DNA of 64,000 bases. Origin: Spirochaetia bacterium. GTDB lineage: Bacteria; Spirochaetota; Spirochaetia; CADAEX01. The stretch lies in NCBI GenBank assembly GCA_017642445.1, contig JAGCPA010000077.1, forward strand, positions 13,661 through 77,660, in the 5' to 3' direction. Below the pieces are notes generated by a model. That model was not told the origin of the DNA, made no database searches, and was given only the letters and a program-made list of their open reading frames with translations. The number at the start of each line of letters is the position of its first letter. Positions within the stretch are counted from its first letter, which is position 1. The position numbers were made by a program, and so were the translations under genes. Positions 3,032 through 28,667 of the stretch are shown here, one piece after another.

Positions 3032-3061
3032 ATTATACGCTTTTTGAGGAATATATGTCAA
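3032..3061 (-). promoter_or_regulatory. Near-consensus sigma70-type promoter for ilvBN
   Basis: The minus strand reads TTGACA, an 18-nt spacer, then TATAAT, about 40 nt upstream of ilvB ATG 2989. The leader is too short for a T-box or attenuator. Confidence 0.6.
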
Positions 3062-3082: not shown

Positions 3083-3436
3083 TTAGACTTGGGTTTTCTC
3101 TTTCAGATTCTCAAGAATTTTCCGTTTTTTCAGGGCATCTGCATAGACGGCGTTGGCCTCTGCCTTCTCTTTTTTTATAATCTCAAGCTGTTTTTCCAGC
3201 TCCAGCGCCTCTTCCTTGAGAGATGTGAGATGAGCCTGCAGAGGGGCAAGGCTCCCAGGAGTCTGGATGGAGCTTACAAAATCGGCATAGAGCTGTGACT
3301 GTTTTTTCTTTATTTTATCAAGGTCGTTCTGAAGCTGGTTGAGCCGGGCATCGATATCGGAAAGCTTTGCGGCGGCATACCGCTCATCCATGATTCGGAT
3401 CTCTAAAAGCTTTTCCAGCCGGAACTCTTTCTTCAT
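3083..3436 (-). CDS. fliJ: Flagellar/T3SS export chaperone-stalk protein FliJ-like (coiled coil)
   Basis: 117 aa and all-helical. The N-terminus FRLEKLLEIRIMDERYAAAKL is typical of FliJ. It sits immediately after fliI with a 4-nt overlap. Confidence 0.65.
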   Translation of the reverse strand: MKKEFRLEKLLEIRIMDERYAAAKLSDIDARLNQLQNDLDKIKKKQSQLYADFVSSIQTPGSLAPLQAHLTSLKEEALELEKQLEIIKKEKAEANAVYADALKKRKILENLKEKTQV

Positions 3437-4749
3437 CGGATGCCTGCTATGGACATAGCGTTATCCATGCTCTCCTGGAAGGAGGCCTTCTCCTTGAGAT
3501 CCTGGATAAGGAACCGGTCTATCATATCATGCTTCTCTATAGCAAGGTCTATGGCTCTGTTTGTGCCACGGTTGTACGCACCCACATTAATAAGATCCTC
3601 TGCATCGCGGTAGACAGCCATGTGATGCTTTATCACCTCGGCAGCCTTGAGCAGGTTGGCAGGAGCAACACGCACAGCGCTTCTGGAGACAGACTGAAGC
3701 ACATCCACAGCCGGATAGTGGCCTGCCTCGGAAAGTTTTCTCGAGAGGATTATATGGCCGTCCAGGAAGCCCTCTGCGCTGTCTGAGATAGGCTCGTCCC
3801 TGTCATCCCCTTCCACCAGCACAGTGAAGAAGCCTGTGAGGGTTCCCTTGTCTGAGTTCGCACACCGCTCAAGAAGCTTGGGCATCTCGGTGAATACCGA
3901 CGGCGGATAGCCTCTGGTCGCAGGAACCTCTCCGATAGAGAGACCTATCTCGCTCTGAGCCCTGGCAAAACGGGAAAGGGAATCGAAGAAAAGCATGACA
4001 TTCTTTCCCTGGTCCCTGAAATGCTCTGCCACAGTTACAGCAGTATAAGCGCCGCGGACACGGCAAACCGGGGATGTGTCAGAGGTTGATACAACCACAA
4101 CTGACTTGGCCAGCTTCTCCTCGCCAAGGTCGTTCCTTATGAACTCCCCCACCTCGCGGCCACGCTCGCCTACAAGCGCTATGACATTTATATCGGCCTG
4201 GGTGTTCCGGGCTATCATTCCTAAAAGTGTGGTCTTACCTGTACCTGCTGGAGAGAATATTCCAAGCCGCTGGCCAAGCCCTACTGTAAGGAGGGAATCT
4301 ATGGAGCGGACTCCCGTCTCCACGCTCTCCTGCACCATCTGGCGGTTAAGGATATCAGGCGGGGTGCCGAATACAGACTTTTTCTTTCCGAAGCCTATCG
4401 GCCCCTTGCCGTCCAACGGATTTCCCATGCTGTCTATTACGCGTCCCAACAGCGAGTTGGTCATAGGTATTCCGAGGCTGCGTCCTGTGGCCACCACCTG
4501 GCATCCCATCTGGATTCCCACAGCGCTGCCATAGGTTATTAGACGCACCTTGGAGCCGTCTATTGCAACAACCTCAGCCGGCACAGGGTTCTCTTTCTCG
4601 GGCAGATATATCTGGCACAGCTCTCCTACCATGGCCTGTGGCCCTATGCTCTCTATCATAAAGCCTGTAACCTTGGTCACCATGCCTGTGTAGCGGCAGG
4701 GCTGTGAATTCTCTATTATCCGGACAAAACGCTCAAGATCACTCTTCAT
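3433..4749 (-). CDS. fliI: Flagellum-specific/T3SS ATPase FliI
   Basis: F1/V1-like ATPase with Walker A SPAGTGKTTLLGMIAR and Walker B VMLFFDSLSRFARAQSEIG. I prefer ATG 4749 (MKSDLERF), which has AGGAG 9 nt upstream. The ORF-track start is 4794. Confidence 0.9.
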   Translation of the reverse strand: MKSDLERFVRIIENSQPCRYTGMVTKVTGFMIESIGPQAMVGELCQIYLPEKENPVPAEVVAIDGSKVRLITYGSAVGIQMGCQVVATGRSLGIPMTNSLLGRVIDSMGNPLDGKGPIGFGKKKSVFGTPPDILNRQMVQESVETGVRSIDSLLTVGLGQRLGIFSPAGTGKTTLLGMIARNTQADINVIALVGERGREVGEFIRNDLGEEKLAKSVVVVSTSDTSPVCRVRGAYTAVTVAEHFRDQGKNVMLFFDSLSRFARAQSEIGLSIGEVPATRGYPPSVFTEMPKLLERCANSDKGTLTGFFTVLVEGDDRDEPISDSAEGFLDGHIILSRKLSEAGHYPAVDVLQSVSRSAVRVAPANLLKAAEVIKHHMAVYRDAEDLINVGAYNRGTNRAIDLAIEKHDMIDRFLIQDLKEKASFQESMDNAMSIAGIR

Positions 4750-5398
4750 GCAGGCTGCTCCTGATAGAAGAAAGCTGGGTGGAAATCCTGGCATCTACGC
4801 CCCCTGTGGTGCTCTCCACCACACAGCCACCCTGCTCCACCGAATGGTCTTCGGCTATTTTTATAGATTCCACCTTGTCGAACATATTAAGAAGAAGGGA
4901 ACGGTATTCCCTTGCCACATCCATATCGGCCAGGTTCACACGGAGCACCACAGGACTCTTCTCCTTGAGGAGCCCAAGGGCATACTCGGCATTGCGCACC
5001 GCAATATCACGCTGCTTTGCACACGACGCCTTCACAACCTTTCCCGCAATCTCAACTGCCAGGTCAACGATATCGTGCTTGGCATTCTCAAGGATATTCC
5101 GCTTGCACTCATCGACATCGCGGGTTATGACCTCGAGCTGGCTTATAAGTCTGTTAACCTGGTCAAGCCCTTTCTCGAAGCCTTCCTTCTCCCCTTTTGC
5201 AAAGCCCTCTTTCTTTGCCTCTTCGTAGGCCTGGGTTCTGATTCTCTCGGCCTCGGACTTTGCCTCCTGACGGATCCGTGCGGCATCGCCGCTGGCTTTC
5301 TCCAGCTGCACCATAAGGTTTCTGCTCTCTGCCTGGACATCTATATGGGAAGCTCTTTCCAGCTCTTCCACATCTATGGCTTTGAATACATCTGTCAT
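4739..5398 (-). CDS. fliH: FliH-like ATPase regulator/peripheral stalk
   Basis: 219 aa with an E/K-rich coiled N-terminal half and a C-terminal FliH/SctL-like domain (VVLRVNLADMD...GGCVVESTTGGVDARI). It lies between fliG and fliI. Confidence 0.7.
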   Translation of the reverse strand: MTDVFKAIDVEELERASHIDVQAESRNLMVQLEKASGDAARIRQEAKSEAERIRTQAYEEAKKEGFAKGEKEGFEKGLDQVNRLISQLEVITRDVDECKRNILENAKHDIVDLAVEIAGKVVKASCAKQRDIAVRNAEYALGLLKEKSPVVLRVNLADMDVAREYRSLLLNMFDKVESIKIAEDHSVEQGGCVVESTTGGVDARISTQLSSIRSSLHEE

Positions 5399-6375
5399 TT
5401 AGGGCCTCCTGCTTTTCTGACGGCAGCCAGTATCTGGCGCTGGGACTCCTCTATCTCCTTGAGTCTTATAGGCTTGGAATCGGGCTGGGATAGAATCTGG
5501 GAACGTTCCGGATCAAGGTTTGCCAATACTTTCTCGCGTGCCTCGTAGCTTGCTGTCCTCAATGCTTTTGCTATGTCATCGGATGAGACACCTGCAAGGA
5601 CAGAGCACAGGATCTCATCATCTATCTTGACTAAATCATCAAACACAAGGATCTGGGATGCCAGTTCCTCTGAGAGTTTTGTGTTGCTCCGGCGGATATC
5701 GGAAAGGATGTCGGCACCTGTCTTCCTGTCCATCCGGTTCAGGATATTCATCATGCTCTCTATACCGCCAGCCTCCTTGTAGCCGGAAAGGTCAAAGAGG
5801 GCAAGCTTCTTCTCAAGCACTTTCTCCACGTTGCGCAGCATCTCGGGAGATGTCCTGTCCATGACTGCAATGCGCCGTGCCACATCGGACTGGATGCTTC
5901 TGGGCAGTGCCGAAAGGATTCTGGATGCGGCCTCGGGCTCAAGATATGCAAGAACCAGGGCAATAGTCTGGGGCTGCTCGAACTTGAGGAACGATACAAG
6001 GCGGTCGCTCTGCACACGCTTGACAAATTCAAACGGCTTCTTGTGGAGGAATACCGATATCTTCTGGATAATCTCGTCGGCCCGCTTCTCTCCGAAGGCC
6101 TTGGAGAGCAGTTTCCTGGCATAGTCCACTCCGCCTGTGGCAATGTAGTTCCGGGCTGTGGCCAGCTCTCTGAACTCGTAGAGCACCTGGGAGAGAGTGT
6201 TGGAATCCACCTTCTCGGTAGAGGCTATCTGATATGAGAGTATCTCCACATCCTGGGCATTAAGATGTCCGAAGACCTGTGCAGACGGCTCGCATCCGAG
6301 CGCCAGGAGGAATATGGCGGCTTTTTCTTTGCCTGAAAGCTTTTTTATGGCTGCAGCTTTCTTCAGTCTTGGCAT
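5395..6375 (-). CDS. fliG: Flagellar rotor/switch protein FliG-like
   Basis: 326 aa. FliG signatures span the N, middle and C domains (SGKEKAAIFLLALG, EQPQTIALVLAYLEPEAASRIL, GGIESMMNILN, LVFDDLVKIDD). The C-terminal torque-helix region is atypical (see findings). Confidence 0.85.
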   Translation of the reverse strand: MPRLKKAAAIKKLSGKEKAAIFLLALGCEPSAQVFGHLNAQDVEILSYQIASTEKVDSNTLSQVLYEFRELATARNYIATGGVDYARKLLSKAFGEKRADEIIQKISVFLHKKPFEFVKRVQSDRLVSFLKFEQPQTIALVLAYLEPEAASRILSALPRSIQSDVARRIAVMDRTSPEMLRNVEKVLEKKLALFDLSGYKEAGGIESMMNILNRMDRKTGADILSDIRRSNTKLSEELASQILVFDDLVKIDDEILCSVLAGVSSDDIAKALRTASYEAREKVLANLDPERSQILSQPDSKPIRLKEIEESQRQILAAVRKAGGPK

Positions 6376-6376
6376 A

Positions 6377-7321
6377 TCAATCCTCCGACAGCCAGGTTTT
6401 TACAAGGCGTGCAACCTCTTCCGGGTTCTGGGATGCCATGTTGCGCGCATCTTCCAGTATGGCCTCTTTCTTCTTCTTTCCGAAAATCAGGATAAGGATT
6501 ACGGCAAGCAGCACCACTGCCAGAGAGACAGCGGCTGCATATGCGATGTTGCGGCCTACAGGAAGCCTGTCAAAGATATCCTGCTCTGCCGGAACCTGTG
6601 TCAAAGGCTTTACTGCAGGGATGGCTGGGGAGGTGCCCATTCCTGCATAGTCCGAGAGAAGATTTCCGGCTGTGTCGCTGATAGTTATATTCTTGTCCTC
6701 AAGCCCTTCCACCGCAAACTTGACCAGCTTGATTATTCCCTGGATCTTCTTTGGGTTTGATACAATGTCAGAGCCTGGATGGGGGGTGATGATAATGGAG
6801 GCAGAGACATCCTTCTGGTCTTCGGTGAAAAGTGATTTTTCCGGCATAACCAGAGTTATTCTGGCCCGGTCTACATCGGCAAGGGCCTCGATATGCTGCT
6901 CAAGGCTCAGGCTGATTGCCCGCCGAAGGTTCACGTTGCGCTCGAAGTCGGTGGTGGTCCACCTGTCCATCTTGAACACATCCCATGGGGAGGCATTCTT
7001 CGGAACCAGGTCCTCTCTGACAAGCAGGGCAATCATCTTCTGGGCATCGCCCTTGCTCTGGAGATAGATCATTCCGTCGGAAATCTTGTGGGAAACTCCC
7101 TCCTGATCAAGACGGAGCGATATGGCGTTGAGCAGTGTGCTGTCTGCAATTTTTGCTGTGAACAGCGGAGTCATGAAAGATGTGGAGCCCGCTGAGCTTA
7201 TGAAGACAATAAGGGCAAAGGCAATTGCCAATATCAAGATAATCGAGACTTTCTGTGCCTGCCTAAGCTTTTTCCAGAATTGTCCTATACTGCTGAAAAA
7301 CTCCTTTATTTGTCCTTTCAT
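6377..7321 (-). CDS. fliF: Short FliF/SctJ-family ring protein (RBM1+RBM2 only, TM2 and FliG-binding tail retained)
   Basis: 314 aa. Layout is TM1 (~25-43), then the YscJ/FliF-type region (LVREDLVPKN..WDVF..DRWTTTDFERNVNLRRA..LE..I..L..V..A.I.LVMPEKSLF), TM2 (~259-280), and the C-terminal NPEEVARLVKTWLSED. Canonical FliF is ~530-570 aa. A strong SD (GGGAGGGG) precedes the start. Confidence 0.75.
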   Translation of the reverse strand: MKGQIKEFFSSIGQFWKKLRQAQKVSIILILAIAFALIVFISSAGSTSFMTPLFTAKIADSTLLNAISLRLDQEGVSHKISDGMIYLQSKGDAQKMIALLVREDLVPKNASPWDVFKMDRWTTTDFERNVNLRRAISLSLEQHIEALADVDRARITLVMPEKSLFTEDQKDVSASIIITPHPGSDIVSNPKKIQGIIKLVKFAVEGLEDKNITISDTAGNLLSDYAGMGTSPAIPAVKPLTQVPAEQDIFDRLPVGRNIAYAAAVSLAVVLLAVILILIFGKKKKEAILEDARNMASQNPEEVARLVKTWLSED

Positions 7322-7354
7322 AACCCCTCCCTGATCTAAAAGAACTTATATAAT

Positions 7355-8662
7355 CTACAAGATATATCTTGCCAGATCCTGATCCCCTAACACGCCGTTC
7401 AGCCTGTCGTCCACATACTGCGGCGTAACTGTTATAGTCTGTCCCTTGAGCTCCGGTGCTGCGAAGGAGACCTCCTCCAGAAGCAGCTCCATTATTGTAT
7501 GCAGCCGTCTTGCCCCGATGTTCTCGGAGCCTGCATTGAGCTCCTGTGCTATATATGCGATCCGTTTCACTGCCTCGTCGGTGAACTCAAGCTTGACATC
7601 TTCGGTCTCCATAAGAGCCTTGTACTGCTTTATAAGCGCGTTCTGAGGCTGTGTCAGAATCTTCTCGAACTCTGCTGCCTGCAGCGGCTCAAGCTCCACC
7701 CGAAGCGGGAACCGTCCCTGAAGCTCAGGGATAAGGTCCGAAGGCTTGCTCATGTGGAACGCACCTGCGGCAATGAAAAGGATGTGGGTTGTGTCCACCA
7801 TTCCGAACTTGGTGTTCACCTTGCACCCTTCAACTATAGGCAGGATATCCCGCTGGACTCCTTCTCTGGAGACATCTGCACCGCTGGTGTTCTGCCTTCC
7901 AGCCACCTTGTCGATCTCGTCTATGAATACGATGCCCATCTCCTGGGTCCGTGTCTTCGCAATCTCTGCAACCTTGTCGCTGTCTATCAGCTTGTCAATC
8001 TCTTCCTCTAGCAGAATCTCGCGGGCATGCTTCACTGTGGTGCGCCGTTTTTTCTTCTTGTTGCCCATTACTCCGGTTATGCTTCCGAAGTTGATGCCCA
8101 TATCCTCAAGGCCTGTGCCGGCAAAGATCTCCATGGGCTGGAAACCTGCTCTGGTCACATCTATCTCTATCTGGTGCTCCTCAAGCTCCCCGTCCCTGAG
8201 CTTATTACGGAACTTCTCGCGGAGCTGTTCCTCTTTGTTTCCCGGGAGCAGAAGATCAAGGAGCTGCTCCTCCACCCTTACCTTCGCATCCTCCATGACA
8301 GTGCTCCGCATCTCGGTCTTGACCATATTCACAGCTACTGCCATAAGATCGCGGATTATGGACTCAACATCGCGGCCCACATAGCCTACTTCGGTATATT
8401 TGGTAGCCTCCACTTTTACAAACGGAGCACCAGAGAGCTTTGAGAGGCGGCGGGCAATCTCGGTCTTTCCTACACCGGTTGAGCCGATCATGATGATATT
8501 CTTAGGAATAACCTCTTCCCGCAATGACTCGGGCAGCATCTTCCGCCGCACCCGGTTCCGCAGTGCCATGGCCACAGTGCGCTTCGCCTTGTCCTGGCCG
8601 ATTATATATTTATCAAGTTCCTCTACTATCTGCTTTGGAGTAAGCTTATCAAAATCAAGCAT
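7355..8662 (-). CDS. hslU: ATP-dependent protease ATPase subunit HslU
   Basis: TPKQIVEELDKYIIGQDKAKR, Walker A GSTGVGKTEIARRLS, and IVFIDEIDKV give a full-length HslU pattern. Confidence 0.95.
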   Translation of the reverse strand: MLDFDKLTPKQIVEELDKYIIGQDKAKRTVAMALRNRVRRKMLPESLREEVIPKNIIMIGSTGVGKTEIARRLSKLSGAPFVKVEATKYTEVGYVGRDVESIIRDLMAVAVNMVKTEMRSTVMEDAKVRVEEQLLDLLLPGNKEEQLREKFRNKLRDGELEEHQIEIDVTRAGFQPMEIFAGTGLEDMGINFGSITGVMGNKKKKRRTTVKHAREILLEEEIDKLIDSDKVAEIAKTRTQEMGIVFIDEIDKVAGRQNTSGADVSREGVQRDILPIVEGCKVNTKFGMVDTTHILFIAAGAFHMSKPSDLIPELQGRFPLRVELEPLQAAEFEKILTQPQNALIKQYKALMETEDVKLEFTDEAVKRIAYIAQELNAGSENIGARRLHTIMELLLEEVSFAAPELKGQTITVTPQYVDDRLNGVLGDQDLARYIL

Positions 8663-9195
8663 CAGAGTTCCTCCACAATAATATTGCTGTTTGTATAGAT
8701 GCAGATCTGTGATGCGATCTCAAGGGATGATTTTGCAATCTCGGCTGCGCTCATGGCAGAGCTTGAGCGCATGAAGGCCAGGGCTGCCGCATAGGCGTAG
8801 TTGCCGCCTGATCCTATGGCCAGGGCCTCCTCGTCGGGCTCCACTACATCTCCTGTGCCCGAGATAAGGAGAATCTTGTTTGCATCGGCAGCCAGAAGCA
8901 TCGCCTCCAGGCGGCGGAGGGCTCTGTCGGTCCTCCACTCCTTGGCCAGCTCCACTGCGGCCCGGGTCATGTCGCCGCCGAACTCCTTGAGCTTGCCCTC
9001 GAACTTCTCGAACAGGGTGAATGCATCGGCTGTGGCACCTGCAAAGCCTACAAGAATCTTGCCGTCATATATTTTCCGCACCTTCCGTGCGTGCCCTTTC
9101 ATCACAGTCTTATCCAGTGTAACCTGGCCGTCGCCGGCCATTGCAACCTTGCCATCCTTTTTTACTGCAAGGATTGTTGTTCCTCTAAATTCCAT
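8662..9195 (-). CDS. hslV: ATP-dependent protease subunit HslV
   Basis: [26 protein letters not shown] is the HslV N-terminal nucleophile region. ATG 9195 has GGAGGAG 3 nt upstream, whereas the ORF-track start is 9225. Confidence 0.95.
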
Positions 9196-10105
9196 TTTCT
9201 CCTCCTTTCTGCCCCAGCCTTCCATGAGGATGTGTAGTTCTGTGGATATCCTTAAGACGCCCTATTCCCACATGGGTGTAGATCTGGGTGGTGGAAAGCC
9301 CTGCATGGCCCAAAAGCTCCTGCACGGCCCGGATGTCGGCACCGCTTTCCAGAATATGGGTGGCAAAGGTGTGCCGGAATGTATGCAATGTCACATTCTT
9401 GTCGATATGTGCATTCATCTTGTACTGTCTTAAAATCCAGGTGGCACCGCGGGCTGTGAGCGGATTCCCCTTGTAATCTATGAAAAGGGTCTCTGTATCA
9501 GTCCCCTCTTTTGTCACCACCTGCTGCCGGAGCGGCAGATATGCCTTGAGTATCTCTGCAGTCTGTCTTCCGAAGAATACAAACCGCTGCTTGTTCCCTT
9601 TTCCAGTTATAAGCACCTGGCCAGACGCAAAATCAAGGTCTCTGATTTTGATTGAGAGAGCCTCTGAGATACGGCAGCCCGATGCGTACAGGAAGCTGAA
9701 GAGAGCCTCGTCCCGTGCACCCAGCATAGGATTGGAGGACTCCTTCTTGACAGCAAGCTCATCAACCCGCTCAAGCTCGCTTTTTGTCATATAGAGAGGG
9801 AGCTTCTTATCCACACGCTGTGACTTTACATAGTCGAACGGGTTGAACTCTGTCTCCTTCTCTCTGATCTTATAGTCATAGAATTTGCGGAGTGCCGAAA
9901 TCTTCCGGTTGATGCTCCGTGCATCAAATCCTTTCTTGGAAAGATGTGCCACATATCTCCTGCCGCTGTTTCTGTCAGGGTTTGAGACAGAATAACCCGA
10001 CTCCTCCATGAAGGAGATGAACTCCGCAATGTCGCCGCTGTATGCTCTTACAGTGGCTGGAGAGAGGTGCCGGATGTTCTCAAGATAGGAGATATACTGT
10101 TTCAA
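9185..10105 (-). CDS. xerC: Tyrosine recombinase XerC/CodV type
   Basis: Carries the phage-integrase catalytic motifs ([58 protein letters not shown]). It sits between topA and hslV, as codV does in Firmicutes. Confidence 0.85.
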
Positions 10106-12187
10106 TCACTCTTCCTTCACATGGTTCTTGCATTCTGTGTTGCTGCAGGAGTAGAAACTGCCCCTGGACTTCTCGTACCGCTCCACCATGAAGTATCCGC
10201 AGTCGGGACACATCTTCTTGGTAGGCTTATATGCACTTATGAAATCGCACTTAGGATAGTTGGTGCATCCGTAGAACTCGCGCCCCTTTCCGCCGTGCTT
10301 CTTCCTTGCAACAATCTGGCCGTCGCAACCTGGGCGCGGACATTTGCAGAACGGAATAGACTGGGTGTTCTTGCACTCCGGGAATCCTGAGCAGGCCAGG
10401 AAGTGGCCGAACCGCCCTAGCTTCTTGACCATAGGACGGCCGCACTTGTCGCACTTGTATTCAGTAAGCTCATCCATGCTTCCGCGCTTTGACTCAAGGG
10501 TTGCCATAACGTTGTCCACCTGCTCCTTGAAAGGCTTGTAGAACTCGCCTATCATCTGGCTCCAGTTGTCCTTGGACTCCTCTACATCATCCAGCTTCTG
10601 CTCCATCTCGGCAGTAAAGTTCACATCCAGGATCTTCGGGAACTTCTCCAGAAGTATCTCGTTTATCATCTTGCCCAGCTGTGTCGGGATAAGCTGCTTG
10701 TTCTTCCGTGCCACATAATAGCGCTCGATAAGGAGTGTGATTATTGGTGCATATGTGGATGGACGTCCTATACCTTTCTCCTCCATAACCTTTACAATGC
10801 TGGCGTCTGTATATCTGGATGGACCCTGGGTAAAGTGCTGTTCTGTCTCGTACTTTGAATACTCAAGCTCATCGCCTGCCGCAATGGCCGGCAGATGCAC
10901 TGCCTTCTCCTTGATTGCCAGCAGTTTTAGCACAGCCTGGAAACCTTTCTCCTTGACAACAGAGGCAACAGTCCTGAAAGGCTTTCCATTGCAGTTTATA
11001 TCCACTGTGGTCACCGCCAGTACACTGTCCTTCATCTGCGAGGAGACAAACCGCTCCCATATTATGCTGTAAAGCTTATGCTGGTCTGATGTCAGATACT
11101 GCTTCACAGAATCTGGTGTGTATTTAACATAAGTAGGCCTGATTGCCTCGTGAGCATCCTGTGCCCGCTTTCCAATGCTGTAGTTGTTGAAGTGGTCAGG
11201 CAGTGCCTGCGGGAAGTTCTTACCTATGTAATCCCGCACATCTGCCAGAGCCTGGTTGGAGATACGGGTGGAGTCTGTTCTCATGTAGGTGATAAGGCCG
11301 ACCCGGTTTGTCCCCAGGCTGATACCTTCGTACAGCTGCTGTGCAAGCTGCATTGTCTTCTTGGATGTGAATCCAAGCCTTATAGCCGCATCCTGCTGAA
11401 GCTTTGATGTGGTATACGGTGCCCGCGGATTGAGGATCTTGTCTACAGTCTTGATATCTGTGACAACATATTTCTTCCCGGCGAGGGCTGCCATAAATGC
11501 ATCAACCTCGGCCTTGGAGCGGAATGATATCTTATCCTCGTTCTGCGGAACAAGCTGGGCCATGAAGCTTCCTTTCCCTTTCTTAAGCTCCACATCCAGG
11601 CTCCAGTACTCCTCTGGAGTAAATGCAAGAACCTCGGCCTCCCGGTCGCATATAAGACGGAGTGCGACAGACTGCACGCGCCCTGCAGAAAGGCCGTTCT
11701 TCACCTTTTTCCACAGGATAGGAGAAAGGTTGTAGCCTACAATGCGGTCAAGCACACGGCGGGCTTTCTGGGCGTTCACCTTGCCCATGTCTATGTCCTG
11801 CGGAGCATTCACCGCAGCCTTGATTGCAGTCGGGGTGATCTCGTTGAAAATAATTCTTTCGATCTTAGCAGGAATCTTCTTGGCCTCGAGCGCACACTTG
11901 AGGTGGTAGGAGATAGCCTCTCCCTCACGGTCATTATCAGAAGCAAGTAGAACCTCGTCTGCCTTTGCCGCTTTCTTCTCAAGCTCCTTGAGGATGGAAG
12001 CCTTGCCCCGTACCGTTATATATTCCGGCTCAAAGTTGTTGTCCACATCTATTGCTATCCTGGATTTAGGCAGGTCAATAAGGTGCCCTACCGATGCCTC
12101 GACAGAATATCCTTTTCCTAAATAATGTTCGATTGTTTTTGCCTTTGCAGGAGACTCTACTATAAGCAATGTTGATTTCTTGGCCAT
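10106..12187 (-). CDS. topA: DNA topoisomerase I
   Basis: TOPRIM N-terminus (LLIVESPAKAKTIEHYLG), the Topo IA core, and C-terminal Cys4 zinc ribbons (CDKCGRPMV..., CPRPGCDG..., CPDCGYFMV). Confidence 0.95.
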   Translation of the reverse strand: MAKKSTLLIVESPAKAKTIEHYLGKGYSVEASVGHLIDLPKSRIAIDVDNNFEPEYITVRGKASILKELEKKAAKADEVLLASDNDREGEAISYHLKCALEAKKIPAKIERIIFNEITPTAIKAAVNAPQDIDMGKVNAQKARRVLDRIVGYNLSPILWKKVKNGLSAGRVQSVALRLICDREAEVLAFTPEEYWSLDVELKKGKGSFMAQLVPQNEDKISFRSKAEVDAFMAALAGKKYVVTDIKTVDKILNPRAPYTTSKLQQDAAIRLGFTSKKTMQLAQQLYEGISLGTNRVGLITYMRTDSTRISNQALADVRDYIGKNFPQALPDHFNNYSIGKRAQDAHEAIRPTYVKYTPDSVKQYLTSDQHKLYSIIWERFVSSQMKDSVLAVTTVDINCNGKPFRTVASVVKEKGFQAVLKLLAIKEKAVHLPAIAAGDELEYSKYETEQHFTQGPSRYTDASIVKVMEEKGIGRPSTYAPIITLLIERYYVARKNKQLIPTQLGKMINEILLEKFPKILDVNFTAEMEQKLDDVEESKDNWSQMIGEFYKPFKEQVDNVMATLESKRGSMDELTEYKCDKCGRPMVKKLGRFGHFLACSGFPECKNTQSIPFCKCPRPGCDGQIVARKKHGGKGREFYGCTNYPKCDFISAYKPTKKMCPDCGYFMVERYEKSRGSFYSCSNTECKNHVKEE

Positions 12188-12199
12188 TTTCTCCTCCTT

Positions 12200-13189
12200 C
12201 TATCTCTTGAAATAATAAATACCACTGTTGTTCACAGCCCTGTCATCCAGTTCCCAGGAGAGAAGCTGATGCTGCTCCGCCTCCTTGAGGCTGTCTGTCT
12301 TATACACTGGGATCTCGACATCCCATCCTAAATCCATCATCACATCCACCGGGCCGGAAATACTCTTGGCCCCCTGCTCCACCAGAGCAAGTCCGCCGGC
12401 TCCCTGAGGGAACGGAAGTCCTGCCTCATGAACATATATCTCCCTTCCCTGCTCAGCCGCAAAGTCGGCGGTTATAAGAGCACCGGAACGCTTGGGTGCC
12501 TGCACCACAACCACTGCCGATGAGAGGCCGCTTATAATCCGGTTCCGCTGCGGGAATGTGAATTTTGCCGGCTTTATTCCAGGGCCGAACTCACTGAATA
12601 TCACTCCTCCGTCTTCAAGCATCTGGTATGCCAGCTTCCGGTTTGCATATGGATAAATCTCGTCTATGCCGTTGCCCAGCACTGCTATGGCAGGCATCTC
12701 GGCAGCCATGTTGCCTATGTGGGAATGGCGGTCTATGCCCAGAGCCAGCCCGGAGACAACACGCACGCCGTTGACACCGAAGCCGAAGCCCATGTCAAAG
12801 GCTGCCGAAAGGGCGGCGCCGCTGGGGTACCTAGTTCCAACAACGCCTACTGTCCTGCTGTAATCTGCAGGAAGAAGACCCCTGTAAAAGAGAATAAACG
12901 GAGGATCATATATCTCTTTCAGCAGGGGCGGATAAAGGGGACTGAATATGGAGATGAATTTTACGCTGCTTTTCTCCACAGTTTTTATCTCACGGTCTGC
13001 TGCCTTGAACGCGACATCAAGAGCCTTGAGATCTTTTGCAAATAGTCCCGAAATACATTTTTTGACTCCAGATATGGATATCTCTTTGCCGACTCTCTCT
13101 TCCAAAAGAGTAAGCAAGGAAATCTTGTCCTTCATATCGAGACCTTTCAGATGTTTGAAAACAAATGCAAGATAATCTTTATTATCCAT
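12200..13189 (-). CDS. dprA: DNA-processing protein DprA (Smf)
   Basis: Rossmann-like DprA core (VGVVGTRYPSGAALSAAFDMG...GLALGIDRHSH...AVLGNGIDEIYPYANRKL...PQRNRIISGLS). Confidence 0.85.
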   Translation of the reverse strand: MDNKDYLAFVFKHLKGLDMKDKISLLTLLEERVGKEISISGVKKCISGLFAKDLKALDVAFKAADREIKTVEKSSVKFISIFSPLYPPLLKEIYDPPFILFYRGLLPADYSRTVGVVGTRYPSGAALSAAFDMGFGFGVNGVRVVSGLALGIDRHSHIGNMAAEMPAIAVLGNGIDEIYPYANRKLAYQMLEDGGVIFSEFGPGIKPAKFTFPQRNRIISGLSSAVVVVQAPKRSGALITADFAAEQGREIYVHEAGLPFPQGAGGLALVEQGAKSISGPVDVMMDLGWDVEIPVYKTDSLKEAEQHQLLSWELDDRAVNNSGIYYFKR

Positions 13190-13198
13190 ATCTTTCCT

Positions 13199-14086
13199 TC
13201 AGACTGCCGGATGACTCCGGTCATAAATTCTACGCAGATCGCTGCGGTCCAGATGGGTATAAATCTGGGTTGTTGAGATATCGGCATGTCCAAGCATCTC
13301 CTGCACTGAGCGGAGGTCTGCCCCGTTCCTGAGCATGTGTGTGGCAAAGGAGTGGCGCAGTGTATGCACTTTTCCCTCGATATCTGCATGCTTTGATATC
13401 TCCTTGAACTTCTTCCAGATTCCCTTGCGGCCTATCTTGCGGCCGAAACAATTGATGAACAGGTATTCTGACTGCTTCTCCTTGAGAAGACTCTTTCTCC
13501 CCTCCTCCATATATTTGTGTATCCAGTAGAGAGAAACCTCTCCCAACGGCACAATACGCTCCTTGCTTCCCTTTCCGAACACACGCACCACCCCTTCCTC
13601 GGGATAGATGTCGGAACATTTGAGGTCTGCCACCTCCGAGATACGCAGGCCGCAGGAATAGATGACCTCGAACAGCGCCCTGTCCCTGATTCCGGCCGGC
13701 TTGCCCAGCGCTATGCTGTCGAAGAAGGAATCCACCTCGGCATTGCTGAAAACCTTTGGAAGCACATGGCCGCTTTTCGGCATATCAAGCACTGCGACAG
13801 GGTTGTCACGGCGCACATCCTCCAGCTGCAGGAACTTGAAGAACGAACGGAGGCTGCTCATGATCCTGGATACTGTGCGCGATGTAAGATGCCCCTCTTT
13901 GGTGCGGCTTGAAATATAATCCTCTATGTCAGATGTGGTTATGGAATCTGGTGTGATCTTCCGGTTTCCCAGATAAGAGATGAACATACCTATCTCCCTG
14001 CTGTAGATCTGCACTGTCGCAGAGGAGAGGTTGAGCTCGCTGATTATATAGTCCACATAGCTGTCGGAAAGCCGCTTTAAATCCAT
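13199..14086 (-). CDS. xerD: Tyrosine recombinase XerD type
   Basis: [57 protein letters not shown]. The likely start is the Met of MDLKRLSDSYV at 14086, which shares one base with the ftsZ stop. The ORF-track start is 14158. Confidence 0.85.
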   Translation of the reverse strand: MDLKRLSDSYVDYIISELNLSSATVQIYSREIGMFISYLGNRKITPDSITTSDIEDYISSRTKEGHLTSRTVSRIMSSLRSFFKFLQLEDVRRDNPVAVLDMPKSGHVLPKVFSNAEVDSFFDSIALGKPAGIRDRALFEVIYSCGLRISEVADLKCSDIYPEEGVVRVFGKGSKERIVPLGEVSLYWIHKYMEEGRKSLLKEKQSEYLFINCFGRKIGRKGIWKKFKEISKHADIEGKVHTLRHSFATHMLRNGADLRSVQEMLGHADISTTQIYTHLDRSDLRRIYDRSHPAV

Positions 14087-15294
14087 TATTCTTCTGTCCT
14101 TATTCCTGGTACTTTGCCTCTGAGCCGGTAGATAGCCGGCTGCTCGATATTGCCCCACTCAGCATTGCCCTCGCTCTGGATCTGGGTGCTTGCTCTTGGT
14201 GCCGCACTGCTGCTTATTCCCACCTTCTGCATCGCATCCCATTCTCTTGAGCTCACTACATTAGGTTTATCAACCTTTGGTCTTGAATAATGGCTGGATG
14301 GGCTTTTCTGACTTGGTGGAAACCCTGTGGCAATGATAGTCACAGAAACTCTCTCTTTCATTGTCTCATCCACACGGTGACCGAATATAAGGTTCACATT
14401 CTCGTCGGCATTGGAGCGGACCAGGTTGAGGATCTTCTGGAGGTCAGGCATTGTGAAGTCCGGACCGCTGGTGATATTGAGGATAATTCCTGTCGCACCG
14501 GTGATATCTGTGTTCTCCTGAACCTTGTTGCAGAGCGCATTGGTTATTGCATCCACAGCCATGTTCTCTCCCTTGCCCTCGCCTATGCCCATGAAGGCCT
14601 CGCCTTTTCCGCGCATGATTGTGTTTATATCTGCAAAGTCAAGGTTTATGTCGCCAGGGCTGGTTATGAGGTTTGCGATTCCCAGGATTCCATCGCGGAG
14701 CACACCGTCGGCAATCTTGAAGCCTTCCTGCATGGTAACAGTCTTCTCGACCTGGGCAAATTCTATGAGCTTCTGGTTGGGGACAACGATGAGGGCATCT
14801 ACATTCTCTTTAAGACGTTCAATTCCTGTAAGGGCATTCTGCATGCGTACCGGACCCTCAAGATCGAATGGGGTGGTCACTACAGCTACAGTAAGTATGC
14901 CCATGTCCTTGGCAATCTTGGCAATTACAGGGGCACCGCCGGTACCGGTTCCACCGCCCATTCCTGCAGTAATGAACACCATGTCGGAGCCTTCGATGAA
15001 CTCCTTGATGTCATCCTTCTGCTCGTTGGCGGCATCCTCGCCTACCTTAGGGTTTCCACCGGCGCCCAGACCATGGGTTGTCTCCCTTCCAAGGGGCAGA
15101 TGGGTTTCGGCCTGGCTCCGCTTAAGAGCCTGAAGATCGGTGTTCGCAGCAATGAATACAACATCCTGCGGGTTATAGTCTTCGATGATGCGGTTCACTG
15201 CATTGCATCCTGCACCACCTACTCCGATAACCTTGATGACCGCACTTTCTACCGGACCTATTTTTTCCTTATCATCAACAATTGTTAATTCCAT
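14086..15294 (-). CDS. ftsZ: Cell division GTPase FtsZ
   Basis: Contains the tubulin signature GGGTGTGGAPVIA. The N-terminus is IKVIGVGGAGCNAVNRI. There is a C-terminal conserved-peptide-like PAIYRLR. Confidence 0.95.
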   Translation of the reverse strand: MELTIVDDKEKIGPVESAVIKVIGVGGAGCNAVNRIIEDYNPQDVVFIAANTDLQALKRSQAETHLPLGRETTHGLGAGGNPKVGEDAANEQKDDIKEFIEGSDMVFITAGMGGGTGTGGAPVIAKIAKDMGILTVAVVTTPFDLEGPVRMQNALTGIERLKENVDALIVVPNQKLIEFAQVEKTVTMQEGFKIADGVLRDGILGIANLITSPGDINLDFADINTIMRGKGEAFMGIGEGKGENMAVDAITNALCNKVQENTDITGATGIILNITSGPDFTMPDLQKILNLVRSNADENVNLIFGHRVDETMKERVSVTIIATGFPPSQKSPSSHYSRPKVDKPNVVSSREWDAMQKVGISSSAAPRASTQIQSEGNAEWGNIEQPAIYRLRGKVPGIRTEE

Positions 15295-15313
15295 TTTCCC
15301 CTCCCCCTATATT

Positions 15314-16633
15314 CTAGAAATCCTTCACAAAGTTCTTTGCTTTAGTCCACAGCCACTTTCCGGCGACCTTGAACATTCCGTCGCCCTCATCCTGCGGCAT
15401 CTCCTCTCTGGAAGACTTGCCAGGATCAGGTCTTCTCTTTGCCAACCGGGCCCTGATCTTCATATCAAGGCCTATCTGTGCAAGGCCGATTGCACCGGCA
15501 TATTTAGGATTCTCGTAATCCTTAGCCGCTCCGGTAAGCCCCAGAGGAACACCTATGCGCACCGGAATCTTGAACACTTCCTCGGCAACCTCGCTCACAC
15601 CTGGAAGCAGGGCGCCGCCGCCGGTAATAACAATGCCGCTGTTCACGTACTGCATAGTCTTTGTATCCTCAACAGCACGCTTTACTTTTGTAAAAATCTC
15701 CCACATCCTGGCCTTTGCAATCTCGCACACCTTAAGGCGCGAAACAGTTCTCTCGCCGAAAGATCCGGATGTGACAGGAATCTCAATCATCTCTTTATCA
15801 TCAACCAGCGATTCGTGGCATGCTCCCTGGTTGACCTTTATTTTTTCTGCTATGTCGCTGGAAAGCCTGAGCACAGCCGCTATGTCGCTGGTAACATATT
15901 TTCCGCCTATAGGAACAACGCCTGTGAAATAGGTGGCGCCGTTCATCTGGATTCCGACCTCGGTTGTGCCTCCGCCGATATCTATCACCATGACACCGGC
16001 CTTCTCCTCCTCGGGAACCAGAATAGCCTTGCAGTCGGCCAGTGTTATCGGAACCATGTTCTGTATTCCGTATTCAGAGCGCTCGATGCAGTTCTTCAGG
16101 TTCTTCATTGCAGAGGTGGAAGCTGTGATTATGTGGGCCTGCACCTCAAGCCGGTTTCCGATCATGTGCAGCGGATTCTTTATGCCGCCCTGGTTGTTCA
16201 CTTTATATTCAATAGGCATCACAAAGAAGGTCTCTCTGTCTGGCACCTCTGGAATTGCACCTGCGGACTTCATGGCCTCCTGCTTGTTCTGCTCTGTTAT
16301 CTCGGGTCTCTCGCCGCGTCTTCTGCTGTCAACTTTGACCACTCCGATAGAATTGAGCCCTTTCACATGCTCGCCGCTGATGCCGCATACAACCTCTTCG
16401 ACATCCCGGCCTGACATGTTCACAGCAGCCTCGACAGCCTGCACTATGCAGGAGCTGGCAGATTCTTTATTGATGATTACGCCGTTACGGATTCCTTCGG
16501 AAGGAGCGTTTCCGACCCCCACCACTTTAAGCACCGGCTCGCCCATCCTGTCCACATCACATTCCCCTATGACGGCAGTGACATTTACAGTACCGATATC
16601 AAGCCCTACAACAATATCATTAGAATCCATCAT
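15314..16633 (-). CDS. ftsA: Cell division protein FtsA
   Basis: Actin-like ATPase (VVGLDIGTVNVTAVIGE, VIDIGGGTTEV, GIVITGGGALLPG) with a C-terminal amphipathic helix. Confidence 0.95.
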   Translation of the reverse strand: MMDSNDIVVGLDIGTVNVTAVIGECDVDRMGEPVLKVVGVGNAPSEGIRNGVIINKESASSCIVQAVEAAVNMSGRDVEEVVCGISGEHVKGLNSIGVVKVDSRRRGERPEITEQNKQEAMKSAGAIPEVPDRETFFVMPIEYKVNNQGGIKNPLHMIGNRLEVQAHIITASTSAMKNLKNCIERSEYGIQNMVPITLADCKAILVPEEEKAGVMVIDIGGGTTEVGIQMNGATYFTGVVPIGGKYVTSDIAAVLRLSSDIAEKIKVNQGACHESLVDDKEMIEIPVTSGSFGERTVSRLKVCEIAKARMWEIFTKVKRAVEDTKTMQYVNSGIVITGGGALLPGVSEVAEEVFKIPVRIGVPLGLTGAAKDYENPKYAGAIGLAQIGLDMKIRARLAKRRPDPGKSSREEMPQDEGDGMFKVAGKWLWTKAKNFVKDF

Positions 16634-17454
16634 CAGCCCTCCTTGACCTTATAAACAATCTTGCCACCTCTGAAATCAAGCTCATCGGTCTGCTTATCTA
16701 TTCCATTCTCCTGCATCACATCCAGGACAGTGAACATCTGCTGGAGCATTCCGTCGGTTATGTCCGAACTGGTGCGTATCCTGATGCTGCTGTTCGCCGG
16801 ATAGATGACTACATCAAAAGTCCCCTCTGACTTCTCTACAAATTTAATTTCGGATATCTGCTCGAAGAGTGTGCCTGAAGACTGCTTCACAGCAGAGAGC
16901 CTGGAGAGATACGGTATGAACATGCTTGGAAGCTGTGTGCCAAGCTTGAGATTCTGGAATGTGAGGCCGGAGATCACAGGAAGCTCATAGTCTGTCACCC
17001 CTTCCCCTATCTCGAAGATAACCCCTTCCCGGTCCAGTGTGACAGGAACAGTGATTCCATCCACCTCTATGAAAGTGATTGCAAAAGGCTCTCTTCCCTC
17101 TACAACTATCTTGATTGCCGATGGGAACGACTTCTCCACCTTGGCAGCCTGAATCAGATTGTTCTCCAGAAGACGCCGCTCAACCTCTGCGGCATCGATC
17201 GCAAAATAGCTCTCTCCACCGGTTATTCCGGCCAGCTGAAGTATCTCGGAAGAAGAAAGCGCCACGGAAGCCGGTGAATACACCTGGACCTTGTCAATCT
17301 TAAGGTTCGGTGAGATCAGAAGCATGAAGACAGCTTCCATGGACGCAAGACCAAGGATGAAGAGAAAAACAAAAAGGAGGATTTTTTTGTTTACCGTTCT
17401 GCTCTTATGTTTAACCTGGAAAGAATAACCAGGATAAATATCAATACTACTCAT
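16633..17454 (-). CDS. ftsQ: Cell division protein FtsQ/DivIB (POTRA)
   Basis: A single N-terminal TM followed by a POTRA-like region (IDKVQVYSPASVALSSSEILQLAGI). It lies between ftsW and ftsA. ATG 17454 has GAGGAG 6 nt upstream. Confidence 0.7.
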   Translation of the reverse strand: MSSIDIYPGYSFQVKHKSRTVNKKILLFVFLFILGLASMEAVFMLLISPNLKIDKVQVYSPASVALSSSEILQLAGITGGESYFAIDAAEVERRLLENNLIQAAKVEKSFPSAIKIVVEGREPFAITFIEVDGITVPVTLDREGVIFEIGEGVTDYELPVISGLTFQNLKLGTQLPSMFIPYLSRLSAVKQSSGTLFEQISEIKFVEKSEGTFDVVIYPANSSIRIRTSSDITDGMLQQMFTVLDVMQENGIDKQTDELDFRGGKIVYKVKEG

Positions 17455-18565
17455 AGTAATCTCCTCTGTCAGTACCCCGTGACACATTCAGCAGAAAACC
17501 GCACATTATCATAGTCACCAGCATGGAAGTTCCACCCTGAGAGAAGAATGGCATGGTAATTCCGGTAGTAGGGATCAGCTCTGCAACAACTGCGGTGTTA
17601 ACCAGCATCTGGAAGAAGATACTGGTTGTAATTCCAAAAGCCACATACGACTTGAATCTGTCGGTGGCTGTCCATGCAATGTAATAACCCTTGAAAGCCA
17701 GGAACGCGAAAAGGAGGATGATTATGATGACACCCACAAATCCCAGCTCCTCGCCCACAATGGCAAAGATAAAGTCTGATTTGGCCTCGGGCAGGCTTCC
17801 CATCTTATAGCTTCCGCTTCCTATTCCACGGCCGAATATACCGCCCGCAAGCAGCGCCTCCTTGGCCTTGAGGATCTGATAGCTGCTTCCTTCGGCGTCT
17901 GTGTTTCCCGACATGTGTGAAAGAAGACGGCTCAGACGGTACGGCTCCATGAGTATGAAAAGGAAGAACAGAAGTCCGATCCCGACACCCAGCAGGAACA
18001 GCATCCTGATGCGGAATTTAGAGACAAAAAGCATAGTGGCGCAGAGGCCCATTATAAATATGGTTGTGGACAGGTCGCTCTGCAGCCATACAATCTGAAT
18101 TATGGCCAATATAACGGTGAATACCGATGTGGAATAATTCTTCTTTCTCCCCTCTTCCACCCTTACAAAGTCGGATGCAAGATAGAGGACCAGGACTATC
18201 TTATAGAACTCTGACGGCTGGAGCGAAAGGGCACCGATACGGATCCAGCGCGAAGCACCGTTCACATCGCCGTACAGCGGAGGAAGAAGATTAAGCACAA
18301 ATACAATAATCAGGAACAGCTTGTTCCACCGGCGGAAGAAATCCATCGGCATATAGGCCACAAATATTGCAAGTATGGATCCCATGCAGAACATAAGGGC
18401 CTGACGTGATATGAAGTAGGTGAAAGGTTTTCCTGTGTTTACTGCGTCCGGATACGATGCAGAGAACAGCATAGCCATACCGCTGCCTGCCAGGAGCAGG
18501 ATCACTGCCAGCAGCATTGTGTCAAAAGAGTTGCCACGCTGTCTTTCCATCAAGAAACCGTCCAT
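17447..18565 (-). CDS. ftsW: SEDS-family peptidoglycan glycosyltransferase FtsW/RodA type
   Basis: Polytopic membrane protein with SEDS motifs (RWIRIGALSLQPSEFYKI, PEAKSDFIFAIVGEELGF, TGITMPFFSQGGTSM). Confidence 0.85.
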   Translation of the reverse strand: MDGFLMERQRGNSFDTMLLAVILLLAGSGMAMLFSASYPDAVNTGKPFTYFISRQALMFCMGSILAIFVAYMPMDFFRRWNKLFLIIVFVLNLLPPLYGDVNGASRWIRIGALSLQPSEFYKIVLVLYLASDFVRVEEGRKKNYSTSVFTVILAIIQIVWLQSDLSTTIFIMGLCATMLFVSKFRIRMLFLLGVGIGLLFFLFILMEPYRLSRLLSHMSGNTDAEGSSYQILKAKEALLAGGIFGRGIGSGSYKMGSLPEAKSDFIFAIVGEELGFVGVIIIILLFAFLAFKGYYIAWTATDRFKSYVAFGITTSIFFQMLVNTAVVAELIPTTGITMPFFSQGGTSMLVTMIMCGFLLNVSRGTDRGDYYE

Positions 18566-18578
18566 AAGTCTCCTTTCC

Positions 18579-19661: not shown

Positions 19662-19662
19662 T

Positions 19663-21057: not shown

Positions 21058-21346
21058 CCGATTCTATCTGACTCCTTGTATCAATAATGATAGTCTGCCC
21101 CACACTGGTGTTGGACAGCTTCATTGTCTCCTTAACCTCTTTGACATGCTGCGGTGAGCTGTAGGCTGAAAGAGAAGTAAGCTCCTGCTTGTTCTTCTCG
21201 AACCACTTCTCCTGGGTGTTCTGGTACTCGTTGACCTCGGCCTGAAGCCGCTCATACTTATAACCCTGGTAGATATTAAGGGCAAACAGCCCCATGATTG
21301 CTATGACAAGAACTATTACAGTAAAACTTCCCAACTTTCCTTTCAT
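21038..21346 (-). CDS. ftsL: FtsL-like bitopic coiled-coil division protein
   Basis: 102 aa with an N-terminal TM (FTVIVLVIAIMGLFALNIY) followed by a coiled coil. It occupies the canonical slot after rsmH. The call rests on position and architecture only. Confidence 0.5.
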   Translation of the reverse strand: MKGKLGSFTVIVLVIAIMGLFALNIYQGYKYERLQAEVNEYQNTQEKWFEKNKQELTSLSAYSSPQHVKEVKETMKLSNTSVGQTIIIDTRSQIESDAERKE

Positions 21347-28210: not shown

Positions 28211-28322
28211 TCACCACTCGATATAGGGCACGCCCAGCTGCTCCTCAAGCCACAGCGCTATCTCGCCCGCTATGTTCTCCAGCTTGGTATCCATGGCCAA
28301 AGTATACCACAGAAATAAAACA

Positions 28323-28351: not shown

Positions 28352-28371
28352 TACTATATAAGGAGATAAAT

Positions 28372-28608: not shown

Positions 28609-28667
28609 TGCTTGACAGATAAGCAATTAAAGTCTCTTTTACTATTTATAACTGATTATGCGTTATA

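Follow-up and report, generated by a model that had tools for sequence, protein, structure and literature searches.

The 64,000-nucleotide (nt) stretch analysed here, called the window in the following, belongs to a Spirochaetia bacterium (contig JAGCPA010000077.1) and carries five flagellar-type genes, fliF′ (fliF-like), fliG, fliH, fliI and fliJ, between hslU and ilvB. Judging from sequence, this block appears to be what selection has preserved of the hslVU-flgB motility operon of spirochaetes, and the locus cannot specify a flagellum. Related genomes with the same block form the window's clade (clade A), and two sister lineages with reduced versions of the operon are referred to as clades B and C. 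We lean slightly towards a reading in which clade A keeps a putative export gate elsewhere in its genome, with the module of the window energising or loading this gate.

Organization of the five-gene block

Five intact and tightly packed open reading frames (ORFs) lie on the minus strand between hslU and ilvB, as the earlier note on this DNA had described. They encode a reduced M-ring protein of 314 aa (fliF′, 6377-7321), a FliG of 326 aa with N, M and C domains (fliG, 5395-6375), a FliH of 219 aa with the C-terminal FliI-binding domain (fliH, 4739-5398), a FliI/YscN-family ATPase of 438 aa (fliI, 3433-4749) and a coiled-coil stalk protein of 117 aa (fliJ, 3083-3436). Independent gene calls place the start of fliI at ATG 4749; ATG 4794 would give 453 aa. 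A base-by-base check reproduced the proposed junctions exactly: fliF′ and fliG are separated by a 1-nt gap, the fliG/fliH, fliH/fliI and fliI/fliJ pairs overlap by 4, 11 and 4 nt, respectively, and a spacer of 33 nt (7322-7354, minus strand), carrying the ribosome-binding site GGGAGGGG, lies between the stop of the upstream neighbour hslU (7355-8662, minus strand) and the start of fliF′. Family signatures had been attributed to all five products. FliF′, FliG, FliH and FliI pass their family cutoffs and show the corresponding motifs, but FliJ remains below the curated cutoffs.

Since the spacer between hslU and fliF′ holds no terminator and offers too little space for a promoter of its own, we infer that the module would share a transcript with hslVU or be expressed from an internal hslU promoter. 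Its downstream boundary is given by the ilvB promoter, which had been placed directly after the fliJ stop and is indeed found there, on the minus strand at 3032-3061, with a perfect 12/12 match to the sigma-70 consensus TTGACA-18-TATAAT. The ilvB start was assigned to ATG 2989; the longest ORF opens at TTG 3061, but this extended form lacks conservation and was rejected. Retention of the block only for read-through into ilvBN was ruled out, since ilvB has its own consensus promoter and selection acts at the protein level.

Origin from the hslVU-flgB operon

In three motile relatives (L009, L053 and L055), the 5′ part of the operon reads hslU-flgB-flgC-fliE-fliF(569 aa)-fliG-fliH-fliI-fliJ-orf-fliK, and fliK is followed by flgD-flgE-flbD-motA-motB-fliL-fliM-fliY-fliO-fliP and onward. 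The order of the block matches that of the motile operon, and the block is therefore this operon minus both ends. Indeed, comparison with the three loci bears out that flgB, flgC and fliE are missing upstream and that everything past fliJ is missing downstream; the site of the 33-nt spacer holds about 1.35 kb, with flgB, flgC and fliE, in the motile relatives. Rod, hook, filament, stator and switch genes were found neither at their ancestral positions nor in the 64-kb window, and a scan of about 42 further genes of the window gave no flagellar, chemotaxis or type-III secretion system (T3SS) gene beyond the five.

A different arrangement was observed at L137 (ENA ERZ24773512 NODE_3838, 6293-14885). 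This locus carries flgB, flgC, fliE and a full-size fliF; its operon stops after fliJ and is followed by a convergent PRK-family gene. Such a break after fliJ in the presence of rod genes makes it plausible that the distal operon genes were moved elsewhere.

Upstream of the block, two tyrosine-recombinase genes of the XerC/XerD type (9185-10105 and 13199-14158) flank dprA-topA, one of them directly upstream of hslV. This recombinase-dprA-topA-hslV synteny persists in every related locus, whether from a motile lineage or not, and the codV-clpQ-clpY genes of Bacillus subtilis show the same arrangement with a recombinase upstream of hslV.

FliF′ has lost RBM3

FliF′ is composed of a first transmembrane segment (TM1, residues ~24-46), RBM1 (~50-117), RBM2 (~121-225), a linker (226-256), a second transmembrane segment (TM2, ~259-282) and a C-terminal helix (288-314). 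The part of the gene coding for RBM1 and RBM2, which are SctJ-like periplasmic ring-building domains, spans 6647-7174 on the minus strand. PF01514 matches residues 50-223 at 131 bits, and the flagellar model TIGR00206 matches at 199 bits (cutoff 130), yet only through its positions 4-222 of 555. No match to PF08345, which covers the RBM3/β-collar region of the S-ring, was found in FliF′ by the Pfam scan, whereas the FliF of L009 has this domain. In the alignment, the RBM3/β-collar region of about 250 aa is cleanly deleted, and most of the cytoplasmic stretch that follows TM2 is gone as well. In its place, a new, Pro-rich and disordered linker of about 30 aa runs straight into TM2, which is followed by a short basic stretch.

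The C-terminal end of the protein has been kept. The hydrophobic segment 255-285 corresponds to the second transmembrane segment, and the FliG_N-binding helix behind it is encoded at 6380-6460 on the minus strand (ILEDARNMASQNPEEVARLVKTWLSED). The tail NPEEVARLVKTWL is present on sequence check, and its portion NPEEVARLVKTWLSED aligns with EDVAQLIRTWLxEE of the motile FliFs, at a ratio of nonsynonymous to synonymous substitution rates (dN/dS, or omega) of 0.025.

RBM3 of FliF is described as forming the S-ring around the rod (PMC11739650; 10.1101/2024.07.30.605930). Having lost RBM3 and the β-collar, FliF′ is thus unable to form an MS-ring with a rod inside. The MS-ring scaffold that the earlier note supposed to be kept by the cell is thus not what this gene encodes; instead, FliF′ shows a SctJ-type architecture plus a FliG-binding tail. 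In the AlphaFold2 (AF2) model of FliF′, both RBMs are predicted with a confidence score (pLDDT) of about 80-85 and the linker is disordered. RBM2 of this model superposes in Foldseek on the RBM2 of Salmonella FliF with a root-mean-square deviation of 1.1-1.8 Å, and the model also gives two-domain Foldseek matches to the injectisome proteins EscJ, PrgK and MxiJ. In contrast, the SctJ model TIGR02544 reaches only 36.5 bits on FliF′, against a cutoff of 161.95, which places the protein outside the SctJ family by sequence. The resemblance to SctJ is thus one of fold and domain architecture only, FliF′ being flagellar as far as its sequence is concerned.

When 1.84 billion representative proteins were searched exhaustively, end-to-end matches to the short FliF came only from clade B. 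Several other candidates were rejected: P0052/L048 belongs to a full operon in a frameshift-ridden long-read assembly, P0054, P0069, P0071, P0074, P0107, P0058, P0064 and P0056 are truncated or frameshifted fragments, and P0094 and P0110 are truncated gene calls inside motile-type operons. P0363, P0372, P0479 and P0456, considered as RBM3-less FliFs, are odd RBM2 duplications or fragments with neither TM2 nor tail. Three of them, P0363, P0372 and P0479, are metagenomic FliF-like proteins of about 300-345 aa with tandem RBM1/RBM2-like copies, which may be either assembly artefacts or genuine ring-building proteins with duplications.

Changes in FliG, FliH, FliI and FliJ

FliG scores 291 bits against TIGR00207 (cutoff 227), and its three domain models, PF14842, PF14841 and PF01706, all pass. 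Its torque helix has changed. The charged residues which we take to contact MotA are K264, R281, D288, D289 and R297 in E. coli numbering, and the mapping of these positions was checked against the FliG of T. maritima and Vibrio. In the window, R281 is replaced by E, D288 by Q, D289 by P and K264 by R, two residues are deleted, and R297 is retained. The window's FliG has thus lost stator-contact charges of the torque helix, and they are likewise lost in the FliG of clade B. Furthermore, the last ~20 aa of the protein are replaced by AGGPK. The FliM-contact motif EHPQR of FliG_M has become EQPQ...R in clades A and C, whereas clade B has EHPQ.

FliH is recognized by PF02108 at 70 bits (cutoff 24), while the NCBIfam equivalog models all remain below their cutoffs, and comparison of its sequence with the PDB gave no matches. 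The N-terminal MTDVFKAID is kept (MAKNVFR in motile relatives), and the next ~75 aa are deleted relative to the motile FliH of 301-313 aa. The N-terminal motif (V/I)FKA(I/V)D is common to clades A, B and C despite an overall FliH identity of 35-49%, and its conservation therefore implies a conserved docking partner. For clade B, the FliMN_C protein described below would be the obvious candidate.

FliI gives 567 bits with TIGR01026 (cutoff 380) and stays below the cutoff of the clade-specific FliI equivalog models (548 vs 630). Its motifs are intact: the P-loop variant SPAGTGKT, the catalytic Glu in ERGREV, the FFDS Walker B, GYPPSVF and the Arg finger in SVSR. FliI is the only untrimmed protein of the five, with all its catalytic motifs kept. 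FliJ lacks the C-terminal ~35 aa of the motile type and keeps Y..AL+..K(I/V)LExLK; its assignment rests on its position after fliI, on 30-31% identity to motile FliJ and on this shared C-terminal motif.

Conservation and selection in clade A

The order topA-xerC-hslV-hslU-fliF(314)-fliG-fliH-fliI-fliJ-ilvB-ilvN is identical in five other species-representative metagenome-assembled genomes (MAGs; L001-L005), which were obtained from samples of yak, sheep, buffalo and goat or belong to the RUG collection. The window itself lies on a 136-kb scaffold from the gastrointestinal metagenome of a ruminant. An identical FliF′ occurs on at least 12 independent contigs of up to 136 kb with the block intact, and 314-aa FliF′ proteins form about 45 clusters at 90% identity, on contigs of up to 659 kb. 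An assembly or binning artefact was ruled out, the block being contiguous with housekeeping genes on many independent contigs of up to hundreds of kb. Clade A consists of ruminant-gut spirochaetes unable to build a flagellum from this locus. Beside the block, HslU is 435 aa long in the window and in L005 and 452-453 aa in L001-L004 and clade B, an indel of ~18 aa in proteins that are otherwise 92-95% identical.

The five ORFs have the same length and are undisrupted in the window and in L001-L005, with the exception of a 5-aa tail on one FliJ. The dN/dS ratios are pairwise NG86 values from MAG sequences; dS of the five fli genes in clade A lies between 0.6 and 1.0, and motile lineages were compared at similar dS. 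The ratios of clade A versus the motile lineages are 0.073 vs 0.031 for fliF, 0.081 vs 0.007 for fliG, 0.094 vs 0.045 for fliH, 0.057 vs 0.033 for fliI and 0.150 vs 0.088 for fliJ, that is, a relaxation of about 2-fold for fliF, fliH, fliI and fliJ and of about 11-fold for fliG, whose product generates torque. Flanking housekeeping genes of clade A show ratios of 0.027-0.095. By these estimates, constraint is relaxed but far from lost, all five genes being under purifying selection.

Selection is unevenly distributed along the proteins. The tightest omega values in clade A are those of RBM2 and the tail of FliF (0.025 each) and of FliG_M (0.040), the most constrained domain of FliG; the loosest belong to the FliF linker, TM2 and the C-terminal bundle of FliG. 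Retention was also measured at sites that are invariant in 26-33 motile relatives. Such sites are kept at 90-100% in the catalytic and C-terminal domains of FliI (88% in the whole protein), at 85-92% in RBM1 and RBM2 (92% in RBM2), at 37-68% in the FliG domains and at ~43% in FliH.

The earlier note had offered a retained module as one of two readings and had taken the clean, coupled frames to speak against recent neutral decay, proposing a comparison of the hslU-ilvB interval and of dN/dS as the check. Both comparisons agree with a retained module: ORF lengths are equal in six genomes with no frameshifts or stops, and the ratios of 0.06-0.15 are far below 1. On these alignments, neutral decay can be regarded as effectively excluded.

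Sister lineages with other reductions of the same operon

Clade C (L052; JGI 3300020112) has the same five genes followed by ilvBN, with 87% identity to the window for ilvB, 74% for FliF and 64% for FliI. Its FliI (L052, 2361-3626; a single contig) carries in-frame deletions of GYPPSVF and GDDxDEP, while the P-loop, the catalytic Glu and the Arg finger stay. From these deletions, the FliI of clade C may be catalytically impaired.

Clade B (L046/47, L049/50 and L054) is more distant, with 81% identity to the window for HslU and 55-58% for FliF. Its operon, as found on a 51-kb contig (L054, Logan ERR11559171_25715, 11374-21362), starts with hslU, FliF (311 aa), FliG (322 aa), FliH (217 aa) and an N-terminal FliI stump of 85 aa, and continues with a 133-aa ORF, a 319-aa FliM/FliY hybrid (FliMN_C), FliO, FliP, FliQ, FliR, FlhB, FlhA and FlhF. 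FlhB (241 aa) comprises the membrane domain only and FlhA (673 aa) is complete. The FliF of clade B has the same RBM3-less design and the same junctions as that of the window, and its FliH shares the short N-terminus. In this clade, FliF and FliG are under constraint too, with an omega of 0.16 and 0.15, respectively, against 0.047 for hslU. By gene content, clade B would thus possess a rod-less, stator-less and ATPase-less flagellar export core with a short FliF.

Two further loci show other outcomes. In L006 (horse-faeces MAG JAKSTW01, 9989-12437), hslU is followed by a 470-aa FliF, a 221-aa FliG, a 107-aa FliK_C remnant and unrelated genes. HslU is 79% identical to that of the window, FliF lacks only the β-collar segment and FliG is internally deleted, so L006 appears to represent a third deletion path from the same operon. 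L051 (ENA ERZ26050812 ctg28406, 10001-17865), on a 4.6-Mb contig of 72% GC, contains hslU, FliF, FliOPQR, FlhB, FlhA and a sigma-70-family factor, with no FliG, FliH, FliI or FliJ at the locus. Its FliF of 450 aa has the β-collar deleted and RBM3 kept, its FlhB of 279 aa consists of the membrane domain only, and its HslU is 58% identical to that of the window. L051 therefore looks like an independent reduction in a distant high-GC spirochaete. All the reduced lineages share a FliF directly after hslU and the deletion of flgB, flgC and fliE.

Flagellar loss and retention of a module had been put forward as two separate readings of the block. They turn out not to be exclusive: the operon has eroded stepwise across lineages, and what remains of it in clade A is under selection.

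Possible function of the module

We propose that FliF′ would assemble a SctJ-like inner-membrane ring via RBM1 and RBM2, and that its cytoplasmic tail would hold a static, non-rotating FliG ring. FliH dimers would tether a FliI hexamer beneath this ring, with FliJ as the central stalk. Together, these components would make up one half, ring plus ATPase, of a flagellum-derived type-III apparatus with neither rod nor stator. In clade B, the short FliF, FliG and FliH share an operon with a complete gate, and the export gate was therefore part of the reduced apparatus in the ancestor common to clades A, B and C.

Several observations favour a gate encoded elsewhere in the genome of clade A. FliH, FliI and FliJ are known to act only at the gate, and we know of no gate-independent function for any of them. 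RBM2 of FliF houses the export gate in flagella, and it is the most constrained part of FliF′. Furthermore, clades A, B and C share the docking motif of FliH, FliJ shows no particular relaxation, and L137 shows that the operon can break right after fliJ despite the presence of rod genes.

On the other hand, a number of points weigh against a distant gate served by this module, or against its description as such. Gate, switch, rod, hook, stator and chemotaxis genes are all absent from the 64-kb window. The gate genes of relatives sit downstream in the same operon, that is, in the very segment missing here, and a simple deletion would be at least as parsimonious as relocation. A scan of JGI metagenome contigs for FlhA, made with an alignment of clade B and L051, carries no weight either way: the best match listed was 46% identical, and the FlhA of clade B was not among the matches listed. 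The ATPase itself looks dispensable in clades B and C, given the 85-aa FliI stump of the former and the FliI deletions of the latter; ATPase-independent type-III export, as described for Salmonella (PMC4230889), is consistent with this. In clade B and L051, FlhB has no cytoplasmic domain, so that canonical substrate export is doubtful even there; a non-motility role of the FliOPQR/FlhBA core in nanotube formation has been published and is debated (PMC6456723). As for the module, FliJ falls below both PF02050 (21.6 bits, cutoff 28.4) and TIGR02473 (38.9 bits, cutoff 50.45), its profile retrieved only generic coiled coils from the PDB, and dS comes near 1 for some genes in the pairwise NG86 comparisons of MAG sequences.

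These points lead to the alternative that clades A and C lost the gate and kept the FliF′-FliG ring with FliH-FliI-FliJ for a non-secretory job, such as a membrane-anchored ATPase or scaffold. The segment missing past fliJ is the site of the gate in relatives, and one deletion would explain the adjacency of fliJ and ilvB in both clades; neither the 64-kb window nor the flanks of L040 contain a gate gene, and selection is still strong. The divergence of FliG (37-68% of motile-invariant sites kept) and FliH (~43%) would also fit new contacts, for instance a direct docking of FliH on FliG. However, this requires of FliH, FliI and FliJ a gate-independent function, and none is established. In addition, FliJ and the N-terminal motif of FliH are no more relaxed than the rest, the gate-housing RBM2 is the most constrained part, and clade B shows the short FliF alongside a gate. 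We therefore consider the loss of the gate a serious but less likely possibility. If clade A has no gate at all, its module might tentatively be seen as a free-standing, ring-anchored ATPase machine, the first flagellar ATPase complex under selection without a gate, and the known functional repertoire of FliH-FliI-FliJ would need extending.

It is very improbable that the block is a fragment or paralogue split off in a fully motile organism, with a complete flagellar set and a full-length FliF elsewhere. L137, where the operon breaks after fliJ while flgB, flgC and fliE persist, gives this idea some ground. In the window, flgB, flgC and fliE are deleted from their conserved position. A motile organism would also have to be reconciled with a FliF′ without the RBM3/β-collar that forms the S-ring around the rod, with a FliG devoid of stator-contact charges whose omega is up about 11-fold, with the progressive loss seen in related lineages, and with a dcw cluster without ftsI, as reported for non-motile Sphaerochaeta (PMC3372971). 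A functionless remnant in slow neutral decay, still undisrupted, is even harder to believe: debris in relatives (the clade B FliI stump, the FliK_C and truncated FliG of L006, the FliI deletions of clade C) does indicate ongoing erosion in the wider group, but ~4.2 kb have stayed free of frameshifts and stops in six species-level genomes at dS 0.6-1.0, dN/dS is comparable to that of the housekeeping neighbours, and the short architecture is conserved between clades whose FliFs are only 55-74% identical.

Comparison with known reduced flagellar systems

Reduced flagellar derivatives without a role in motility are already known; the RBM3-less FliF and the complementary reductions of the sister lineages are what adds interest here. 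The closest precedent is found in the Chlamydiaceae, non-flagellated bacteria with a ~330-aa FliF-FliG_M fusion without RBM3, which have also kept FliI and FlhA (PMC4768692). Both systems combine a FliF that lacks the RBM3/SpoIIIAG-like domain and has two transmembrane segments with a coupled FliG element and a retained flagellar-type ATPase. However, the chlamydial FliF is also without RBM1 and is fused to FliG_M, whereas RBM1 and RBM2 are intact here and FliG is a separate three-domain protein that would attach via the canonical FliF tail. FliH and FliJ are present here, and the complete injectisome of the Chlamydiaceae has no counterpart among the genes of the window. The origins are independent as well, the block of the window being spirochaetal and located at the ancestral hslU position.

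The module also resembles the SctJ/SctL/SctN/SctO part of injectisomes, with a two-RBM ring protein, a FliH/SctL tether, a FliI/SctN hexamer and a FliJ/SctO stalk. It differs in that the N-terminus of FliF′ is a transmembrane helix and not a lipobox, and in the retention of FliG, which has no injectisome counterpart; no SctD, secretin or needle genes were seen in the window. Buchnera aphidicola is a non-motile bacterium with filament-less basal bodies, which keeps full-length FliF, rod, hook, rings, switch and gate. It is similar in that selection maintains some of the flagellar apparatus in a lineage without motility, but in the present case rod, hook and gate are gone at the locus and FliF itself is cut down. 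In non-flagellated Lysobacter enzymogenes OH11, the retained flagellar T3SS serves non-flagellar secretion and twitching control, with FliI being required (PMC7688988). Lysobacter keeps FlhA, FlhB, FliPQR and rod, hook and ring genes without FliH, in contrast to the window, which keeps FliH, FliI and FliJ and has no gate at the locus. A similar complementarity separates the sister reduced lineages, since clade B keeps the gate and FlhF and lost FliI and FliJ, whereas clade A keeps FliI and FliJ.

Among spirochaetes, cultured Sphaerochaeta are non-motile and coccoid, with all flagellar genes reported lost and penicillin-binding proteins (PBPs) reported lacking (PMC3372971). These are likewise spirochaetes that abandoned periplasmic flagella, and the lack of PBPs is paralleled by the dcw cluster of the window, which has no ftsI/PBP3. 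No named Sphaerochaeta is found among the top 120 HslU matches, where the nearest named relative is Marispirochaeta (68%). The dcw cluster itself comprises mraW (21343-22284), a gene for an FtsL-like small membrane protein (21058-21342), a Mur ligase gene (19663-21057), mraY, ftsW, ftsQ, ftsA and ftsZ; besides ftsI, a second Mur ligase is missing at the usual position. In the literature, we found neither a description of this module nor any report on Sphaerochaeta-like gut spirochaetes with partial flagellar gene sets.

Collectively, the lineages compared here represent several reductions from one ancestral operon, to a ring with the ATPase (clades A and C), a ring with the gate (clade B and L051) or a ring only (L006). 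FliF is always retained, and loss of RBM3 converts it to the two-RBM architecture of SctJ. The module could thus be viewed as a present-day parallel to the first step that has been proposed for the change of a flagellum into a non-flagellar type-III system. As a natural deletion series, these loci may tell what RBM1/2 rings, FliG and FliH-FliI-FliJ do without rod, stator and rotation; they also bear on the separate dispensability of gate and ATPase, and on the exported substrates or other role of the apparatus in abundant rumen bacteria.

Other features of the window

The Rfam scan of the window identified a cluster of three tRNA genes on the minus strand (39899-40206) and no rRNA or other Rfam families besides these. 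A low-GC island extends over 27434-32393, with a GC content of 0.37-0.40 against ~0.51 elsewhere in the window, and contains candidate defence genes. These encode an ORF6N-domain protein of type PDC-S05 (27434-28210), a Schlafen-group-3 helicase of 682 aa with a full-length match to PDC-S41 (29102-31150) and, at 31596-32393, an ADP-ribosylglycohydrolase. The island probably arrived by horizontal transfer.

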